In this document: in pieces, positions 2,658 to 47,674 of the stretch | Layout of the letters: every line of letters begins with the position of its first letter | Position numbering within the stretch: the stretch's first letter is position 1 | Origin: a virus | Lineage: Duplodnaviria; Heunggongvirae; Uroviricota; Caudoviricetes | Strand: one strand, 5' to 3' | IMG/VR virus record: IMGVR_UViG_2588253749_000002 | Length of the DNA stretch: 49,982 nucleotides | Made by a program: the position numbers and the translations under genes | Notes under the pieces: model-generated | What the model was told of the DNA's origin: nothing | The model's database searches: none | What the model saw: the letters and a program-made list of their open reading frames with translations, nothing else

Positions 2658-4665
<2,008 letters not shown>

Positions 4666-6927: not shown

Positions 6928-7608
6928 TCATCGCCATTGCTCCCCAAATACAAAACCAATTTCAGCCAGTGCCTCGTCCATTTTTTCGATGAACTCCGGC
7001 ACCATCTCGTCAAAACTCGCCATGTACTTTTCATTCCGCTCAATCACGACATAATGCAGGCCTTCACGCTTCATGCGCGGGTCATAGTTGGCAAAGTACC
7101 AGGCATCTTTTCGCGTCACCCACATGCTGTACTGCACCTGGGCCATGTAAGCCGATTTTATTGCCTCGAAACCACCGAGCCGGAATTTCATGAAATCCCG
7201 GGAGGTAAACGGGCATTTCAGTTCAAGGCCGTTGCCGTCACTGCATAAACCATCGGGAGAGCAGGCGGTGCGCATACTTTCGTCGCGATAGATGATCGGG
7301 GATTCAGTAATATTCACGCCGGAAGTGAATTCAAACAGGGTTCTGGCGTCGTTCTCGTACTGTTTTCCCCAGGCCAGCGCCTTAGCATTAACTTCCGGAG
7401 CCACACCGGTGCAAACCTCAGCCAGCAGGGTGTGGAAGTAGGACATTTTCATGTCAGGCCACTTCTTTCCTGAGCGGGGCTTTGCTATCACGTTGTGAAC
7501 TTCTGAAGCGGTGATGACGCCGAGCCGTAATTTGTGCCATGCATCATCCCCCTGTTCGACAGCTCTCACGTCGATCCCGGTACGCTGCAGGATAATGTCC
7601 GATATCAT
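6928..7608 (-). CDS. exo: Exonuclease (Red alpha)
   Basis: 226-aa ORF near-identical to lambda Exo. Confidence 0.95.
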
Positions 7609-8390
7609 GCTGCCACCTTCTGCTCAGTGGCTTTCTGTTTCAGGAATCCAAGAGCTTTCACTGCTTCGGCCTGTGTCAGTTCTGACGATGCGCGAATGTC
7701 GCGGCGAAATATCTGGGAACAGAGCGGCAATAAGTCGTCATCCCATGTTTTATCCAGGGCGATCAGCAGAGTGTTAATCTCCTGCATGGTTTCATCGTTA
7801 ACCGGAGTGATGTCGCGTTCTGGCTGACGTTCTGCAGTGTATGCAGTATTTTCGACAATGCGCTCGGCTTCATCCTTGTCATAGATACCAGCAAATCCGA
7901 AGGCCAGACGGGCACACTGAATCATGGCTTTATGCCGTAACATCCGTTTGGGATGCGACTGCCACGGCCCCGTGATTTCTCTGCCTTCGCGGGTTTTGAA
8001 TGGTTCGCGGCGGCATTCATCCATCCATTCGGTAACGCAGATCGGATGATTACGGTCCTTGCGGTAAATCCGGCATGTACAGGATTCATTGTCCTGCTCA
8101 AAGTCCATGCCATCAAACTGCTGGTTTTCATTGATGATGCGGGACCAGCCATCAACGCCCACCACCGGAACGATGCCATTCTGCTTATCAGGAAAGGCGT
8201 AAATTTCTTTCGTCCATGGATTAAGGCCGTACTGGTTGGCAACGATCAGTAATGCGATGAACTGCGCATCGCTGGCATCACCTTTAAATGCCGTCTGGCG
8301 AAGAGTGGTGATCAGTTCCTGTGGGTCGACAGAATCCATGCCGACACGTTCAGCCAGCTTCCCTGCCAGCGTTGCGAGTGCTGTACTCAT
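7605..8390 (-). CDS. bet: Recombination protein Bet (Red beta)
   Basis: 261-aa ORF near-identical to lambda Bet. Confidence 0.95.
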
Positions 8391-8395
8391 CCGTT

Positions 8396-8692
8396 TTATA
8401 CCTCTGAATCAATATCAACCTGGTGGTGAGCAATGGTTTCAACCATGTACTGGATGTGTTCTGCCATGCGCTCCTGAAACTCAACATCGTCATCAAACGC
8501 ACGGGTAATGGCTTTTTTGCTGGCCCCGTGGCGTTGCAAATGATCGATGCATAGCGATTCAAACAGGTGCTGGGGCAGGCCTTTTTCCATGTCGTCTGCC
8601 AGTTCTGCCTCTTTCTCTTCACGGGCGATCTGCTGGTAGTGACGCGCCCAGCTCTGAGCCTCAAGACGATCCTGAATGTAATAAGCGTTCAT
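8396..8692 (-). CDS. gam: Host-nuclease (RecBCD) inhibitor Gam
   Basis: 98-aa ORF matching lambda Gam short form ([21 protein letters not shown]...). Confidence 0.9.
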
Positions 8693-8768
8693 GGCTGACC
8701 TCCTGAAAATGGCTGTGAAAATATCGCCCGCGAAATGCCAGGCTGATTAGGAAAACAGGAAAGGGGGG

Positions 8769-9059
8769 TTAGTGATTCAGGCCGTTACCGCGTCCGTCGA
8801 GAAAAACTTCCACGAGCAAATCACTGGTATAAGTGCGCTCGATGCCGCGATGCAGATAAAGCCGTCCGCGTAAATTAGCTGATGCAGTCCAGGTACCATC
8901 TTTGTGTTTGACCAGCATTCCTGGCATGACCGCGCCGCGATTAACGGTCTGTGTTCCGTAATGTTGATGAACCATAAAAACTCCTGCCCGTAAGCTGGGC
9001 TGCTGAACATATAGAGACTTCTGCGCATATTCAGGCGGTGGATGGCCGCCGGTTGTCAT
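8769..9059 (-). CDS. Hypothetical protein in the kil/N position (first ORF downstream of PL)
   Basis: 96 aa from ATG with GAGG RBS; the ORF track extends it to a TTG at 9179, adding an Arg-rich N-terminus (see findings). Confidence 0.5.
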   Translation of the reverse strand: MTTGGHPPPEYAQKSLYVQQPSLRAGVFMVHQHYGTQTVNRGAVMPGMLVKHKDGTWTASANLRGRLYLHRGIERTYTSDLLVEVFLDGRGNGLNH

Positions 9060-9252
9060 AACTAAGCCGCCTCGTTGAAGCGACTGAGGTATGAAATGTT
9101 GAGTTAATTTCAGCTGGTCACACCGACGTTCACGCGTCCGTTTCACCCCTCGCACTCCCCGAAGCCTGCTGAAATTCAAACTGCGGATCTAAGCGGTCAT
9201 CGCAACGGTGAATCAGGTAGTTGCCGTATCGTTGTGTTGTTGCGATGAACTT

Positions 9253-9331
9253 ATTTAAAACTATAGTTGTTTTATCGTCAACAACAAAAGTTGTTTTATT
9301 GGTTGTTTTAGATATAACTGGTTGTATTTAG
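9253..9331 (-). promoter_or_regulatory. PL promoter with OL operator repeats
   Basis: Minus-strand TTGACG-17bp-TTAAAT embedded in palindrome GTTGTTGACGATAAAACAAC, plus AACAACTTTTGTTGTT and further GGTTGT half-sites; coordinates approximate. Confidence 0.5.
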
Positions 9332-9420
9332 GATGGATTTATTTTGTGACTTGAATCGCATAGCGATAACTGAAGCGAGGTTATGGTGGTTTTTTTAACG
9401 GTGTGTGTGATGAGGGGAGG

Positions 9421-9449
9421 GCAAAAGAAAACCCGGCACGGTGACCGGG
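9421..9449 (-). terminator. Rho-independent terminator downstream of cI
   Basis: CCCGG-CACGGTGA-CCGGG hairpin followed on the minus strand by TTTTCTTTT; coordinates approximate. Confidence 0.5.
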
Positions 9450-9570
9450 ATTCTTACGCCGTTAGGTAAAGATATTATTGCGGTGGCTTAATATTACTAC
9501 CTAGAGCAAAGATAGGAATTAGTTCTTTACTGAATGAGCACAATGCCCAGTTGATAATTTTTAATTGGTA

Positions 9571-10260
9571 CTACCCATGCTTCCTATATGTCTGCGGCAT
9601 GCTCCCAATAACCTTACCGAAGATGAACACCCGGTTCATCTCGTCTTTCTCGATCGGGTCCCACGGTGAGTAGCTTTTGTTATCAGAGATGACCAGCAGC
9701 TTATCCTTCATCATTTGCAGGCGCTTTACATGGGCTGTGTCGTCGTACAGAAACGCATAGATACCATCACCGTCGAAAGATTTAACTGTGATATCAACGA
9801 ACAGCAGATCACCTGGTTCGATCGTTCCTGACATGCTGTCACCACGCACGTTAATGATGCGGATATTTTCCGCCTTCCTACCATCGAACATGTGACGAGC
9901 ATCGTCAAACGAGTACTCAACCGAGCGTAGAACTTCTACAAACTCACGGTTGATGACTCCCGGCCCAGCACTGACTTCTATATCAAGAACGTCAATCTTG
10001 AAGTATTTGGAATGGCTGACAGTTGATTGTATTGGTTGCACTGTACTGTCTGACATATTTCCAACGCCAGAAGATAACCATTCTGCGCGCACACCCAAAG
10101 CGTTCGCGATCTCCACGATTTTAGTTGTTTGATTAGCTTTCCCTGTTTCGATTTTCTGAATAGCAGCCTGGCTAACCCCGACCAAATCCCCAAGCGCCTT
10201 TTGTGTAAGGCCTCGCGCTAATCTGGCTTCTTTAAGTCTTTCTGAGAGTGTTGTTTTCAT
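9571..10260 (-). CDS. cI: CI-type repressor (HTH plus S24 LexA-like peptidase domain)
   Basis: Track ORF 9571-10326; start taken at internal ATG (MKTTLSERLKEARLARGLTQKAL...) giving 229 aa; divergent from cro. Confidence 0.85.
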   Translation of the reverse strand: MKTTLSERLKEARLARGLTQKALGDLVGVSQAAIQKIETGKANQTTKIVEIANALGVRAEWLSSGVGNMSDSTVQPIQSTVSHSKYFKIDVLDIEVSAGPGVINREFVEVLRSVEYSFDDARHMFDGRKAENIRIINVRGDSMSGTIEPGDLLFVDITVKSFDGDGIYAFLYDDTAHVKRLQMMKDKLLVISDNKSYSPWDPIEKDEMNRVFIFGKVIGSMPQTYRKHG

Positions 10261-10301
10261 AGTCCAAATGTACAACCAAGGTTTTATTCCATCAAACGAA
10301 A

Positions 10302-10337
10302 ATGGTTGTTGACTAAAAACAACCATAGTTTTAATCT
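10302..10337 (+). promoter_or_regulatory. PR promoter with OR operator
   Basis: 25-bp palindrome ATGGTTGTT-GACTAAA-AACAACCAT containing -35 TTGACT, 17-bp spacer, -10 TAATCT; GGAGG RBS before cro. Confidence 0.6.
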
Positions 10338-10364
10338 TGATTCAAATTAACCACGGAGGTTGTT

Positions 10365-10595
10365 ATGAACCCAGCTATCAAAACAGCGATCAATATCGTT
10401 GGTTCACAAAAGAAACTGGGCGCTGCTTGCGAAGTTTCACAGCAGGCCGTCTATAAGTGGCTTCACAACAAAGCAAAGGTATCCCCTGAACATGTCGGCA
10501 GCATTGTTACGGCTACTGGTGGAGTAGTGAAGGCATACCAGATTCGCCCGGATCTTCCGAAGTTGTTTCCACACACCGAAAAGAACGCAGCTTAA
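10365..10595 (+). CDS. cro: Cro-like transcriptional regulator
   Basis: 76-aa HTH protein divergent from cI. Confidence 0.8.
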   Translation: MNPAIKTAINIVGSQKKLGAACEVSQQAVYKWLHNKAKVSPEHVGSIVTATGGVVKAYQIRPDLPKLFPHTEKNAA

Positions 10596-10607
10596 ATTTC
10601 CATTTCA

Positions 10608-10620
10608 CGCTCTTTAACAA
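10608..10620 (+). promoter_or_regulatory. boxA-like antitermination element (nutR position)
   Basis: CGCTCTTTAACAA directly downstream of cro, matching the boxA consensus; no boxB hairpin seen after it. Confidence 0.45.
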
Positions 10621-10664
10621 TAAGCAATCAACTTAACAGTCAATTCAAACTAAAGGAGTCAATT

Positions 10665-11204
10665 ATGCAACCACTTCCATACCAACAGACTAGCGGATTT
10701 AGCCCGACTGCGGTGATAAATCGTTCTCAAACAAAACAGGTGCCAGGCCACGAAAAAATCCGTGATGCCGTCCGCGCCTGGTCGGCTGTAGATAATCAGG
10801 ATGTCGTTGCCACACTCATTGTGAATGAGTATCGGGAGCAGGGCGGCGGCACCATCGATTTCCCTGATGATGTCAGCCGTGCACGCCAGAAGCTGTTCCG
10901 CTTCCTCGATAACAAATTCGATTCTGAAAAATACCGAAATAACGTGCGTGAACTGACCCCGGCAATTCTGGCGGTACTACCGCTGGAATATCGCGGTTAC
11001 CTGGTTGAGCAGGATAGCTTCATGGCCAGGTTGGCTGAAATGGAAAAGGAACTCAGTGAGGCAAAACAGGCTGTCATTCTCAACGCACCACGCCACCAGA
11101 AACTGAAGGAAATTAGTGAAGGTATTGTATCGATGTTTCGTGTGGACCCAGATCTGGCTGGTCCATTGATGGCGATGGTTACTACCATGCTGGGGGCGAT
11201 ATGA
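10665..11204 (+). CDS. CII-position regulator, YdaT-like family (tentative)
   Basis: 179-aa ORF in the cII position with RBS AAGGAG; recalled resemblance to prophage YdaT-family proteins. Confidence 0.5.
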   Translation: MQPLPYQQTSGFSPTAVINRSQTKQVPGHEKIRDAVRAWSAVDNQDVVATLIVNEYREQGGGTIDFPDDVSRARQKLFRFLDNKFDSEKYRNNVRELTPAILAVLPLEYRGYLVEQDSFMARLAEMEKELSEAKQAVILNAPRHQKLKEISEGIVSMFRVDPDLAGPLMAMVTTMLGAI

Positions 11205-11290
11205 CAGGTTCAGAAATGGCGAAAGCCGGTCTGCTGGAACAGAACCGACTTTCAGGTGCAAATCGTAACACACTCATTGCGGGAGGAATT

Positions 11291-12220
11291 ATGGCAAACA
11301 CTGCTGAGATATTCAATTTTCCAGTGCCGGATGCGGCACAAAAGGAGCCGCGCGTGGCAGATCTCGATGATGGTTATACGCGCATTGCAAATGAGTTGCT
11401 GGAAGCTGTGATGCTGGCCGGATTAACACAGCACCAGCTTCTGGTCTTCCTGGCTGTCATGCGCAAAACATATGGCTTTAATAAAAAACTGGATTGGGTG
11501 AGCAACGAGCAACTGTCCGGATTGACCGGGATATTACCGCACAAGTGTTCTGCTGCAAAAAGTGTTCTGGTAAAGCGTGGGATTTTGATTCAGAGCGGGC
11601 GGAATATCGGTATTAATAATGTGGTCAGTGAATGGTCAACATTACCCGAATCAGGTAAGAAAAATAAAGTTTACCTGAAAGAGGTAAATTTACCTGAATC
11701 AGGTAAGAAAAGTTTACCCAAATCAGGTAAAGGCGTTTACCCGAATCAGGTAAACACAAAAGACAAACTAACAAAAGACAATATAAAACCTTTTTCGTCC
11801 GAGAATTCTGGCGAATCCTCTGACCAACCAGAAAACGATCTTCCTGTGGTGAAACCAGATGCTGCAATTCAGAGCGGCAGCAAGTGGGGGACAGCAGAAG
11901 ACCTGACCGCCGCAGAGTGGATGTTTGACATGGTGAAGACCATCGCACCATCAGCCAGAAAACCGAATTTTGCAGGGTGGGCTAACGATATCCGCCTGAT
12001 GCGTGAACGTGACGGACGTAACCACCGCGACATGTGCGTGCTTTTCCGCTGGGCATGCCAGGACAACTTCTGGTCCGGTAACGTGCTAAGTCCGGCCAAA
12101 CTCCGCGACAAGTGGACCCAACTCGAAATCAACCGTAACAAGCAACAGGCAGGCATGATAGCCAGCAAACCAAAACTCGACCTGACAAACACTGACTGGA
12201 TTTACGGGGTGGATTTATGA
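11291..12220 (+). CDS. O: Replication initiator O
   Basis: N-terminal region like lambda O (MANTAEIFNF...ADLDDGY...); strong GGGAGGA RBS before ATG 11291; iterons inside the gene; stop overlaps P start. Confidence 0.85.
   Translation: MANTAEIFNFPVPDAAQKEPRVADLDDGYTRIANELLEAVMLAGLTQHQLLVFLAVMRKTYGFNKKLDWVSNEQLSGLTGILPHKCSAAKSVLVKRGILIQSGRNIGINNVVSEWSTLPESGKKNKVYLKEVNLPESGKKSLPKSGKGVYPNQVNTKDKLTKDNIKPFSSENSGESSDQPENDLPVVKPDAAIQSGSKWGTAEDLTAAEWMFDMVKTIAPSARKPNFAGWANDIRLMRERDGRNHRDMCVLFRWACQDNFWSGNVLSPAKLRDKWTQLEINRNKQQAGMIASKPKLDLTNTDWIYGVDL
11642..11753. repeat. Origin iterons (ori) inside O
   Basis: Four to five direct repeats TTACC(C/T)(G/A)AATCAGGTAA(G/A) at about 24-bp spacing (11642, 11670 degenerate, 11690, 11714, 11737) followed by an A-rich stretch. 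Confidence 0.7.
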
Positions 12221-14429: not shown

Positions 14430-14621
14430 CTGTTCTCCAATGACTAGTCTAAAAACTAGTATTAAGACTATCACTTATTTAAGTGATACTGGTTGTCTGG
14501 AGATTCAGGGGGCCAGTCTAGGTATATAAAAGAACATCAATGGGTACACAATGATGAAACAGGTGAGTTGAGTTCAAACTGTAGTACAATTCTCTCCAGT
14601 TTGAACAGGAAAGAATATTCT

Positions 14622-14954
14622 ATGAACCCTTATATTTATCTTGGTGGTGCAATACTTGCAGAGGTCATTGGTACAACCTTAATGAAGTTTTCAGAAGGTT
14701 TTACACGGTTATGGCCATCTGTTGGTACAATTATTTGTTATTGTGCATCATTCTGGTTATTAGCTCAGACGCTGGCTTATATTCCTACAGGGATTGCTTA
14801 TGCTATCTGGTCAGGAGTCGGTATTGTCCTGATTAGCTTACTGTCATGGGGACTTTTCGGCCAACGGCTGGACCTGCCAGCCATTATAGGCATGATGTTG
14901 ATTTGTGCCGGTGTGTTGGTTATTAATTTATTGTCACGAAGCACACCACATTAA
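14622..14954 (+). CDS. emrE: SMR-family multidrug efflux transporter EmrE
   Basis: 110 aa from MNPYIYLGGAILAEVIGTTLMKFSEGF...; four TM segments; low-GC context. Confidence 0.9.
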   Translation: MNPYIYLGGAILAEVIGTTLMKFSEGFTRLWPSVGTIICYCASFWLLAQTLAYIPTGIAYAIWSGVGIVLISLLSWGLFGQRLDLPAIIGMMLICAGVLVINLLSRSTPH

Positions 14955-15210: not shown

Positions 15211-16737
15211 ATGAAAAAAGCCATAGCATATATGCGATTTTCATCACCAGGTCAGATGTCTGGCGACTCATTAAACCGACAGAGAAGACTTATTGCTGAA
15301 TGGTTAAAGGTAAATAGTGATTATTATCTTGATACCATAACATATGAAGATTTAGGATTAAGTGCATTCAAAGGAAAGCATGCACAATCAGGAGCTTTTT
15401 CGGAATTTTTAGATGCTATAGAGCATGGTTATATATTGCCAGGAACTACATTGTTAGTTGAAAGTCTGGACAGACTTTCAAGAGAAAAAGTCGGTGAAGC
15501 GATTGAACGTCTGAAATTGATTTTGAATCACGGTATTGATGTTATAACTCTTTGCGACAATACAGTCTATAATATTGACTCTTTGAATGAGCCATATTCA
15601 TTAATAAAAGCCATACTTATAGCACAAAGGGCAAATGAAGAAAGCGAGATAAAGTCAAGTCGGGTTAAATTATCATGGAAGAAAAAACGGCAGGATGCAC
15701 TGGAGTCAGGCACGATTATGACGGCGTCTTGTCCGAGATGGCTCTCATTGGATGACAAAAGAACAGCTTTTATTCCAGACCCCGACAGGGTGAAAACGAT
15801 TGAGCTAATTTTTAAACTCAGGATGGAAAGGCGATCATTGAATGCAATAGCCAAGTATTTAAATGATCATGCTGTAAAAAATTTCTCAGGAAAAGAAAGT
15901 GCATGGGGGCCTTCTGTAATTGAAAAATTATTAGCGAATAAAGCTCTGATAGGTATATGCGTACCTTCATATCGTGCAAGAGGTAAAGGAATAAGTGAAA
16001 TCGCTGGCTATTATCCCAGAGTCATATCAGATGATTTGTTTTACGCTGTGCAGGAAATTCGATTGGCACCTTTTGGTATTAGCAATAGTAGCAAAAATCC
16101 TATGTTGATAAATCTACTTCGAACAGTTATGAAGTGCGAGGCTTGTGGTAATACCATGATTGTTCATGCGGTATCTGGAAGTTTGCATGGCTATTATGTT
16201 TGTCCGATGAGAAGACTGCATCGATGTGACAGGCCATCAATAAAGAGAGATTTGGTTGATTATAATATCATTAATGAGTTGCTTTTTAATTGTAGTAAAA
16301 TCCAACCAGTTGAAAACAAGAAAGATGCTAATGAAACTTTAGAGTTGAAAATTATTGAGCTCCAGATGAAAATTAATAATTTAATTGCTGCATTATCTGT
16401 TGCGCCTGAAGTTACCGCTATAGCAGAAAAAATCAGAGTATTAGATAAGGAATTACGAAGGGCTTCTGTATCATTAAAAACTTTGAAGAGTAAAGCGGTG
16501 AGCTCACTTGGTGATTTTCATGCTATTGACTTAACCAGTAAAAATGGGCGAGAGCTATGTCGTACACTTGCCTATAAAACATTCGAAAAAATCATAATCA
16601 ATACAGATAATAAAACCTGTGATATCTATTTTATGAATGGCATTGTTTTTAAACACTATCCTTTAATGAAAACAATATCCGCCCAGCAGGCGATAAGTAC
16701 TCTCAAATATATGGTTGATGGTGAGGTTTATTTTTGA
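15211..16737 (+). CDS. ybcK: Large serine recombinase (YbcK-like)
   Basis: 508 aa; N-terminal resolvase-type domain with candidate Ser in YMRFSSPGQ, Cys-rich zinc-ribbon segment and C-terminal coiled coil; AT-rich. Confidence 0.85.
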   Translation: MKKAIAYMRFSSPGQMSGDSLNRQRRLIAEWLKVNSDYYLDTITYEDLGLSAFKGKHAQSGAFSEFLDAIEHGYILPGTTLLVESLDRLSREKVGEAIERLKLILNHGIDVITLCDNTVYNIDSLNEPYSLIKAILIAQRANEESEIKSSRVKLSWKKKRQDALESGTIMTASCPRWLSLDDKRTAFIPDPDRVKTIELIFKLRMERRSLNAIAKYLNDHAVKNFSGKESAWGPSVIEKLLANKALIGICVPSYRARGKGISEIAGYYPRVISDDLFYAVQEIRLAPFGISNSSKNPMLINLLRTVMKCEACGNTMIVHAVSGSLHGYYVCPMRRLHRCDRPSIKRDLVDYNIINELLFNCSKIQPVENKKDANETLELKIIELQMKINNLIAALSVAPEVTAIAEKIRVLDKELRRASVSLKTLKSKAVSSLGDFHAIDLTSKNGRELCRTLAYKTFEKIIINTDNKTCDIYFMNGIVFKHYPLMKTISAQQAISTLKYMVDGEVYF

Positions 16738-19516: not shown

Positions 19517-19602
19517 AGTCAGAGATAACAATCAACTAATACTGTTTTGTTGATTTTTGCTTGTAATTGGCGTTTCTGGTCTGATTTTTGTGGAGTAAGT
19601 TG

Positions 19603-19986
19603 ATGCGTGATATTCAGATGGTTCTTGAGCGTTGGGGAGCGTGGGCGGCTAATAATCATGAAGATGTGACCTGGTCGTCCATTGCCGCCGGTTTTAAGGG
19701 ATTAATTCCTTCAAAAGTAAAATCTCGCCCGCAATGTTGTGACGATGACGCGATGATCATTTGCGGGTGCATGGCCCGTCTGAAAAAGAACAACAGCGAT
19801 TTGCACGATTTATTAGTAGATTATTATGTAGTCGGTATGACATTCATGTCACTGGCAGGTAAGCATTGCTGCTCTGATGGTTATATCGGGAAAAGGTTAC
19901 AAAAGGCTGAGGGCATAATTGAAGGGATGTTAATGGCATTAGATATCCGGTTAGAGATGGATATCGTTGTTAATAACTCTAATTAA
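19603..19986 (+). CDS. quuD: Late-gene antiterminator Q (QuuD-like)
   Basis: 127 aa from [22 protein letters not shown]... with a Cys cluster. Confidence 0.85.
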
Positions 19987-46700: not shown

Positions 46701-47090
46701 TCGTCGTTTGATTACGGCACTAAATCCACGAATAACACCGGGGCGCATACGCACAGTGTGAGCGGCTCTACAAACTCGGCTGGAGCACACACACACTCAC
46801 TAGCCAACGTGAACACGGCTAGTGCTAACTCCGGTGCTGGTAGTGCATCAACAAGATTGTCTGTTGTGCATAATCAAAACTATGCAACATCATCCGCTGG
46901 CGCACATACCCACTCACTGTCCGGCACTGCTGCAAGCGCAGGTGCACACGCACATACTGTCGGTATTGGTGCTCATACGCACTCGGTTGCGATTGGCTCA
47001 CATGGACACACCATCACCGTTAACGCTGCTGGTAACGCGGAAAACACCGTCAAAAACATCGCATTTAACTATATTGTGAGGCTTGCATAA
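43722..47090 (+). CDS. stf: Side tail fibre protein Stf
   Basis: 1122-aa ORF; lambda Stf-like N-terminus ([17 protein letters not shown]...), long Ala/Ser/Thr-rich repeats, C-terminal HxH repeats. Confidence 0.85.
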
Positions 47091-47674
47091 TGGCATTCAG
47101 AATGAGTGAACAACCACGGACCATAAAAATTTATAATCTGCTGGCCGGAACTAATGAATTTATTGGTGAAGGTGACGCATATATTCCGCCTCATACAGGT
47201 CTGCCAGCAAACAGTACCGATATTGCACCGCCAGATATTCCGGCTGGCTTTGTGGCTGTTTTCAACAGTGATGAGGCATCGTGGCATCTCGTTGAAGACC
47301 ATCGGGGTAAAACCGTCTATGACGTGGCTTCCGGCGACGCGTTATTTATTTCTGAACTCGGCTCATTACCGGAAAATGTCACCTGGTTATCCCCGGAAGG
47401 GGAGTTTCAGAAGTGGAACGGCACAACCTGGGTGAAAGATGCAGAAGCAGAAAAACTGTTCCGGATCCGGGAGGCGGAAGAAACAAAAAATAGCCTGATG
47501 CAGGTAGCCAGTGAGCATATTGCGCCACTTCAGGATGCTGCAGATCTGGAAATCGCAACGGAGGGAGAAACCTCGTTGCTGGAAGCCTGGAAAAAGTATC
47601 GGGTGTTGCTGAACCGTGTTGATACATCAACTGCACCTGATATTGAGTGGCCTGCTGTCCCTGTTATGGAGTAA
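47090..47674 (+). CDS. tfa: Tail fibre assembly chaperone Tfa
   Basis: 194-aa ORF immediately after stf; lambda Tfa-like. Confidence 0.85.

Follow-up and report, generated by a model that had tools for sequence, protein, structure and literature searches.

How does a lambdoid phage express its early operons when no N gene is found downstream of PL, and what is the open reading frame that stands there instead? These questions are raised by a prophage that fills the whole of the DNA analyzed here, a stretch of 49,982 nucleotides from IMG/VR virus record IMGVR_UViG_2588253749_000002 (hereafter, the window). The original prediction for this locus noted that the only ORF between PL and gam can be extended upstream to a TTG codon, where it acquires an arginine-rich string resembling those of lambda N and P22 N, and proposed that the phage either encodes a divergent N with a non-canonical start or relies on N-independent antitermination. 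The first of these readings, if true, would amount to a new N family with a non-canonical start. The analysis described below leads to another answer, namely that the interval very probably consists of PL, an untranslated leader of ~271 nt and kil, and is without any N-nut system.

Region 8300-10400 of the window shares 99.6% identity with phages Turner and PhiR34_1, and phages 4A7 and Perceval (genus Bievrevirus according to their records) are further close relatives. The features of the leftward early region, in the direction of transcription from the immunity region, are as follows.

9571..10260, minus strand: cI-like repressor with HTH and S24 peptidase domains (Pfam Peptidase_S24, 1.5e-18; HTH_3, 6.5e-13)
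9449-9432, minus strand: terminator-like hairpin with T-run, a predicted intrinsic terminator closing the immunity transcript 5' of PL (terminator scan)
9295-9280, minus strand: OL palindrome AACAAC-TTTT-GTTGTT (sequence)
9281-9276 and 9258-9253, minus strand: PL promoter, -35 TTGACG and -10 TTAAAT (sequence)
9097..9246, minus strand: distal leader, ~150 nt, lineage-specific (96-99% conserved in 16 phages and more than 100 IMG/VR loci)
8981..8985, minus strand: Shine-Dalgarno sequence AGGAG, 5 nt 5' of the kil start ATG at 8975 (sequence)
8769..8975, minus strand: kil, encoding a 68-aa Kil/KilR-family protein, stop codon included (PHROG 294, NF008465, KilR alignment)
8396-8692, minus strand: gam (Pfam Gam, E=2e-64)
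7605-8390, minus strand: bet, lambda-type Red recombination (annotations of relatives)
6928-7608, minus strand: exo, lambda-type Red recombination (annotations of relatives)
6867-6845, minus strand: terminator-like site directly after exo (terminator scan)
6272-6254, minus strand: strong terminator-like site within the PL operon, 8 bp and a T-run (terminator scan)

The order along the minus strand is PL, leader, kil, gam, bet and exo. The repressor is given with the start used in RefSeq (a CDS of 690 nt, 229 aa); a longer ORF of 251 aa reaches 10326. The promoter and operator palindromes that had been reported for PL are indeed present, at 9253..9295 on the minus strand, and the OL/PL region is ~90% identical to the PR/OR region over 31 nt. 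Transcription from PL probably starts near 9246, and homology across phages of different immunity starts at 9246/9245. The terminator-like sites in the PL operon raise the question of how the distal leftward genes are transcribed without N (see below).

The gap between cI and PL (~9300-9570 in the window) is an insertion hot spot among relatives (L002 4156-5584; L003 5182-6755), with GevT/GevA in PhiR47_2, HipA/HipD in PhiR5_1 and other genes in 4A7 and Perceval. Toxin-antitoxin genes are found between cI and PL in relatives, and the window has no insert there. The distal leftward region carries an IS21-like pair (2724-4525, minus strand), with a 340-aa ORF resembling transposases (3503-4525) and a 260-aa ORF for a DnaC/IstB-like ATPase (2724-3506).

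The ORF in question spans 8769-9179 on the minus strand and would encode 136 aa from the TTG, or 96 aa from an internal ATG at 9059. The extension that precedes this ATG (40 codons, 9179-9060) begins MNFSRLRGVRGVKRTRERRCDQLK and has the KRTRERR string at 9143-9123, so the TTG at 9179, the ATG at 9059 and the arginine-rich stretch are all present as described in the original prediction. An ORF scan found an 83-aa alternative frame as the sole other minus-strand ORF of at least 30 aa between PL and gam, and the interval therefore holds no N-sized ORF and no cIII, again in agreement with what had been claimed. KRTRERR alone is weak evidence, however, because translating the window in six frames gives 29 comparable R/K-rich clusters, many of which lie in non-coding frames (~0.08 would be expected by chance in the leader).

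What, then, does this ORF contain? By homology, the conserved gene is kil, which encodes a 68-aa FtsZ inhibitor of the Kil/KilR family from the ATG at 8975. The protein matches PHROG 294 ('Kil protein for bacterial septation inhibition') over residues 1-68 (E=2e-37) and NCBIfam NF008465 ('FtsZ inhibitor protein') over profile positions 1-70 of 73 (E=3e-18). The NF008465 score of 65.5 bits lies below the curated cut-off of 92 bits, and the window protein is therefore classed as a relative of KilR and not as an equivalog. The Met at 8975 corresponds to profile position 1 of NF008465, KilR of the K-12 Rac prophage aligns pairwise with the window protein from Met1 of both, and the AGGAG sequence is kept in every leader variant, save for a 1-nt deletion just 5' of it. 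Membership in this family suggests that the window Kil would inhibit the FtsZ ring. The ORF is of an already known kind, and is labelled Kil in several relatives.

A 68-aa gene is annotated in the curated HK225 record, in RefSeq 4A7 and in the RefSeq E. coli chromosome that exactly matches 9020-9101. Public phage records differ: Perceval has a 139-aa 'Kil' (L009 4057-4476), Turner a 93-aa ORF that is a frame-hybrid owing to a 1-nt deletion (L011 1606-1887) and PhiR34_1 a 77-aa ORF in the wrong frame (L001 4477-4710). Against these conflicting records, the analysis fixes the start of kil at 8975, giving 68 aa.

The pattern of natural variation was studied in 80 IMG/VR loci with near-identical kil, which represent 59 distinct leader plus kil sequences. 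The kil core has 20 synonymous and 2 non-synonymous variants, 20/22 of them at codon position 3. The TTG extension (9179-9060) has 6 synonymous versus 15 non-synonymous variants (9:6:6 over the codon positions), and the segment from 9059 to 8976 has 3 versus 4 (3:2:2), counts that are small, particularly in 9059-8976, because the relatives are 96-99% identical. The frame from the TTG to kil is open in 68 of 128 related copies, a set that includes some duplicates, and is broken in 59/128, by an in-frame stop in 45 and by a frameshift in 14. The commonest allele has a C to T change at 9086, creating an in-frame TAG at 9086-9084, and is shared by PhiR34_1 and PhiR5_1. A 5-nt duplication (AACTC) is present in several lineages, others have single-base indels, and phage Turner has a 1-nt deletion between 9059 and 8975. 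In two variants (L023 and L027), the TTG itself is out of frame with the arginine-rich segment.

Searches for relatives of the extension gave a similar picture. There is no Shine-Dalgarno sequence upstream of the TTG at 9179, and tblastn of the 40-aa extension against 50,697 phage records uncovered no relatives outside its own lineage; it was found in the same 16 phages, with protein identities of 87.5-97.5%. The extension has no match in Pfam, NCBIfam or the functionally annotated PHROG families, its lone PHROG match being weak (E=0.024) and to an uncharacterized family, and Pfam has no match for either the 136-aa or the 96-aa ORF. A profile search with both versions, proposed earlier as a check, returned no N/Nun family and found the Kil families instead, and the NCBIfam and PHROG matches of the full-length ORF fall in the Kil core. 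In RefSeq, nothing is annotated over 9020-9101 in 40/40 genomes sampled from the 2224 that carry this segment, and only the 68-aa gene is annotated over the ORF in RefSeq, HK225 and 4A7.

We judge from these patterns that the TTG extension is non-coding and behaves like untranslated sequence. The supposed N-like protein of 136 aa is an artefact of read-through. By coincidence, this allele has no stop codon between the leader and kil in that frame, and the 136-aa and 96-aa ORFs have no other reason to exist; the arginine-rich peptide is what results when leader RNA rich in G and purines is read as codons. With the frame open in the window and in roughly half of the related copies, ribosomes may now and then initiate at the TTG or at the ATG of 9059.

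Could N be located elsewhere on the prophage? A PHROG scan of 20 further ORFs from the early-left and early-right regions identified Ren, an SMR (QacE-like) transporter, NinB, an HNH endonuclease, RusA, a P-like helicase loader, a DksA-like zinc-finger protein, a serine recombinase and IS21-like genes. N was found neither among these ORFs nor downstream of PL, and none is present in the annotated early regions examined of close relatives. The rightward side does provide two features related to antitermination.

19588..19986, plus strand: Q-like late antiterminator (PHROG 79, E=6e-54)
10608..10619, plus strand: consensus boxA, CGCTCTTTAACA, 13 nt after the cro stop codon

The boxA is an exact match to what we take to be the rrn-type consensus, and its 11-nt core (GCTCTTTAACA, 10609-10619) has exactly one occurrence in the window. 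No boxB follows it: the RNA of this intergenic region folds with -3.7 kcal/mol (z=-0.44) and has no stable hairpin. The PL leader has no boxA, and nut sites consisting of boxA plus boxB were not found in both the PL and PR transcripts. The boxA travels only with this cro allele, being absent from most loci with other cro alleles, and the N-less relatives 4A7 and Perceval have no boxA and a cro-cII gap of 30 nt. The terminator scan detected no convincing intrinsic terminator between PR and Q. As a separate observation, weak pairing is possible between the boxA and the Shine-Dalgarno region of the ydaT/cII-like gene that comes next.

The gene scans confirm, at the level of homology, that the phage lacks N and carries a Q-like antiterminator. 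Because no N was found downstream of PL or among the 20 ORFs, we accept that early transcription is independent of N, and the second alternative of the original prediction stands to this extent. An N-less state has also been reported for another lambdoid phage, LLS (Genome Res 2025, PMC12315714).

Some further features of the rightward side deserve mention in their own right. A 508-aa large serine recombinase (PHROG 95; 15211-16737, plus strand) lies in a nin-type region between the replication genes and Q, with the SMR-type (QacE-like) transporter gene just upstream of it (14493-14954). Near the tail-fibre end of the prophage, Rfam IS009 (RF02111) matches 47433-47631 on the plus strand with 225 bits, above the gathering score, inside an ORF of the size of a tail-fibre-assembly gene (47090-47674).

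If the DNA between PL and kil is not a gene, what kind of sequence is it? The distal leader (9246-9097) stands in the place of the nutL, N and tL1 of relatives, where upstream genes with a terminator occupy the equivalent position (in phi80, N as annotated, together with its terminator). It holds an inverted repeat and the G-rich stretch that reads as an arginine-rich motif. The inverted repeat had been recognized in the original prediction and does exist, but it is 10 bp and not 9 bp long (TCATCGCAAC at 9248-9239 and GTTGCGATGA at 9206-9197); the first 35 nt of the leader, including the 5' arm of this repeat, are replaced in some relatives. Folding of the PL leader, another of the proposed checks, gave no support for a special structure, the distal leader folding no better than shuffled sequence (z=-0.13). 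An nhmmer search of 308 loci (2.6 Mb) found the same lineage and no remote homologues. RNAalifold and pair counts over 36-44 close variants revealed neither covariation nor compensatory changes, which we attribute to the relatives being too close, and no match to the leader came from Rfam, whether 8000-12000 (E up to 10) or the whole window was scanned. In the predicted fold, C-rich sequence nearer the 5' end pairs with the G-rich stretch, which would explain the composition of the latter. The leader also has a moderate C-over-G bias (C/G 1.3-1.7).

One short segment of the distal leader has a possible partner in the host. The sequence CAACAACACAAC (9231-9242, minus strand), corresponding to nt 5-16 of the putative PL transcript, is complementary to GcvB nt 72-83 over all 12 nt, presumably within the GU-rich stretch of GcvB that serves as its R1 seed. 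The whole window has only two such GcvB-complementary 12-mers, with about one expected by chance, and some relatives have other sequence at this place. The match may be due to chance, or the segment may act as a target or a sponge of GcvB.

The part of the leader that lies closer to kil contains a structured RNA.

9030-9092, minus strand: two-hairpin RNA element (covariation, conservation, fold)
9065..9085, minus strand: hairpin 1, a 9-bp stem with conserved apical UUC / loop / GAG (covariation)
9034..9059, minus strand: linker with the ATG at 9059, and hairpin 2; the start of the 96-aa ORF lies within the RNA element
9050-9034, minus strand: hairpin 2, GGCGG-CCAUCCA-CCGCC (near-invariance)

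Phage phi80, HK225 and an Enterobacter phage have in common a block in which an intrinsic terminator is followed, in this order, by CAUACC, a hairpin, UUAGUUAUGACAACC and GGCGG-CCAUCCA-CCGCC. Scanning lambdoid contigs in IMG/VR with two patterns yielded at least 174 distinct versions of the element. Among the matches listed, hairpin 1 is 98% paired and has 6/9 pairs changed on both sides (76 cells), the lower stem varying while the apical UUC / loop / GAG is retained, and the whole element is 98.6% paired as against 35-55% in slid-partner controls. The linker and hairpin 2 are almost invariant among these matches. Hairpin 2 has one natural compensatory variant, a GGCGC/GCGCC stem followed by seven T, and two frame-shifting deletions leave it intact. 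The element in the window is predicted to be more stable than its shuffled counterparts (z=-2.5). Rfam has no entry that matches it, and a literature search by sequence gave no match. We regard the two-hairpin element as a real, undescribed structured RNA of lambdoid early-left operons, a conclusion that is much better supported than the proposal that the leader is an antiterminator (see below).

The ATG at 9059, from which the 96-aa ORF is read, belongs to this element. A mini-ORF that begins at this ATG (MTTGGHPPP...) ends after 16-24 codons in most phages, and its counterparts in phi80 and HK225 reach a stop after 21 codons, before kil. A GAGG lies 10 nt 5' of the ATG and is paired inside a hairpin. 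From the behavior of the mini-ORF and of the hairpin variants, we conclude that the region of the ATG is an RNA element and that the 96-aa ORF owes its existence to a chance agreement of frames in this lineage. A stalling leader peptide with the polyproline sequence MTTGGHPPP was considered as the main constraint and rejected: it is not preceded by a Shine-Dalgarno sequence; the variant types among the matches listed comprise 10 non-synonymous and 5 synonymous ones; the two frame-shifting deletions and the compensatory stem change spare the hairpin and not the peptide; and the shared downstream nucleotides are read in differing frames across phages.

How closely is the element tied to kil? Among the matches listed, a T-run lies just upstream of it in 71% of versions and kil follows within 400 nt in 41/174. 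By these figures, the element marks a junction in early-left operons generally and does not serve as a kil-specific leader. In most other lambdoid phages it directly follows an intrinsic terminator, and the genes downstream vary. A crude and noisy extraction of the ORF 5' of the element indicated that the upstream gene is often not N. The version found in this lineage is very widespread, since the segment 9020-9101 (82 nt, ending just inside the distal leader) occurs in 2224/5426 complete E. coli genomes, or ~40%, in a median of one place each and at most 2. An AgvB-like anti-sRNA was also considered as a candidate and discarded, as the two are not homologous and AgvB sits downstream of PR', not at PL (PMC4104026).

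With these results in hand, how should the possible substitutes for N be weighed? The proposal of a divergent N holds that the TTG-initiated 136-aa protein, or a free peptide of 33-40 aa, acts through the binding of KRTRERR to a hairpin in the leader RNA. It draws on the open frame in the window and the likeness of KRTRERR to arginine-rich motifs, as well as on the genuine lack of N, the terminator-like sites downstream and the consensus boxA after cro. Against it, the extension has no coding signature, its frame is interrupted in so many copies and the TTG is out of frame in L023 and L027, the TTG has no Shine-Dalgarno sequence and the boxA no boxB, and neither an N/Nun family match nor a relative outside the lineage came to light. 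R/K clusters are common in six-frame translations, and what remains of the protein is a member of the Kil family. We consider a divergent N of either form to be extremely improbable. Its core is homologous to Kil/KilR, a non-antiterminator family, and its extension behaves as untranslated; the first alternative of the original prediction thus falls, and the N-like reading should not enter annotation because this is not a new N family.

Two other proposals dispense with an N protein altogether. One is suggested by phage HK022, a lambdoid phage without N in which putL begins at the PL transcription start (PMC9378689): the distal leader, alone or together with the two-hairpin element, would be a cis-acting, put-like antiterminator RNA that replaces N-nut on the leftward side. 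Such an element could be a new RNA, like put but unrelated to it, that comprises the first 150 nt and possibly the two hairpins and lets host RNA polymerase pass terminators or escape Rho without N. The leader does begin at the PL start, with the homology boundary at +1, and it sits exactly where relatives carry N and a terminator; it is conserved in a very common lineage, and there are terminator-like sites downstream for it to act on. However, BLAST of putL and putR against the window gave chance-length matches only, there is no second copy in the PR operon or anywhere else in the window, the distal leader neither folds better than shuffled sequence nor covaries, and its first 35 nt can be replaced. 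The two-hairpin element, for its part, coexists in phi80 with a gene annotated as N, and in other versions it lies mostly downstream of a terminator and not upstream. On balance, a put-like function for the PL leader seems quite unlikely. The other proposal relies only on host factors, in the manner of rrn operons: the boxA after cro would recruit NusB/NusE and partners and shield the PR transcript from Rho, and the PL operon would need no antitermination. A single exact boxA at the nutR position, with no boxB, fits this scheme, as does the stretch from PR to Q with its lack of a convincing intrinsic terminator. Yet the boxA is tied to one cro allele, is absent from the N-less 4A7 and Perceval and has no counterpart in the PL leader, and it may be a relic of an ancestral nutR. 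We find the combined proposal, that is, the boxA for PR together with an unassisted PL operon, unlikely.

The explanation that we favor is that the interval holds PL, an untranslated leader and kil, with no N-nut system. Once the S24-type repressor is cleaved, host RNA polymerase would start at PL and, unmodified and without N-nut, would transcribe the leader, kil, gam, bet and exo; Kil would then block assembly of the FtsZ ring and hence division. By analogy, the long and partly structured leader probably limits or tunes the expression of the toxic kil gene, possibly through Rho/NusG-dependent attenuation as for Rac kilR, or through RNA processing and stability. In Rac, termination that depends on NusG controls kilR (PMC5793797), and the sRNA KilS derives from the 5' UTR of this gene (PMC8175672). 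For the window, Rho-dependent attenuation is an analogy and not a result, because the C-over-G bias of the leader is only moderate. The terminator-like sites downstream weigh against this explanation where the expression of the distal PL genes is concerned.

What do these conclusions mean for the wider group? A very common lineage of E. coli prophages is confirmed to have Q and no N, and this turns the opening question into a concrete one, namely how its early operons cope with terminators and Rho. The analysis has also brought to light a covarying two-hairpin RNA that occupies a fixed junction in the leftward operons of lambdoid phages, and the remaining interest of the locus lies in the leader and this element.

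It is instructive to compare the locus with known systems. It shares with lambda N and nutL the map place just 3' of PL and an arginine-rich string in one frame, and is unlike them in having no homology, coding constraint, boxB or start signal. The likeness to putL/putR of HK022 consists in a non-coding RNA that starts at the PL transcription start of an N-less lambdoid phage (PMC9378689). The put RNA is ~70 nt and forms two stems at the start of the PL transcript; in the window the position matches, but the leader, with a fold z of -0.13 and with close variants only for comparison, shows no sequence or structural resemblance to put and is present in a single copy. Lambda Kil (47 aa) has the same map position, immediately 5' of gam, and provides the annotation label that is common to related phages. 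Unlike the window gene, however, lambda kil lies behind N, ral and cIII and is N-dependent, and the window protein found no match in Pfam, lambda Kil families included.

The closest parallel is with the Rac prophage. The leader of Rac kilR, with KilS and control by NusG and Rho, is a regulatory 5' region, as the window leader may be, and like it precedes a kil gene that has to be expressed at a low level (PMC8175672; PMC5793797), and differs in that no terminator-bounded sRNA is evident in the window leader. The possibility that the two leaders are homologous was rejected, their alignment scoring the same as shuffled sequence. Beyond kilR, Rac continues with ydaE/racC/recE, whereas the window continues with lambda-type gam/bet/exo, and only about one third of the residues of the window Kil are identical in KilR. 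The two proteins (NF008465, PHROG 294) are nonetheless both small, at 68 aa in the window and 73 aa in Rac, and colinear from Met1, and in both prophages the gene stands in the early leftward operon, 5' of recombination genes and behind a long untranslated leader.
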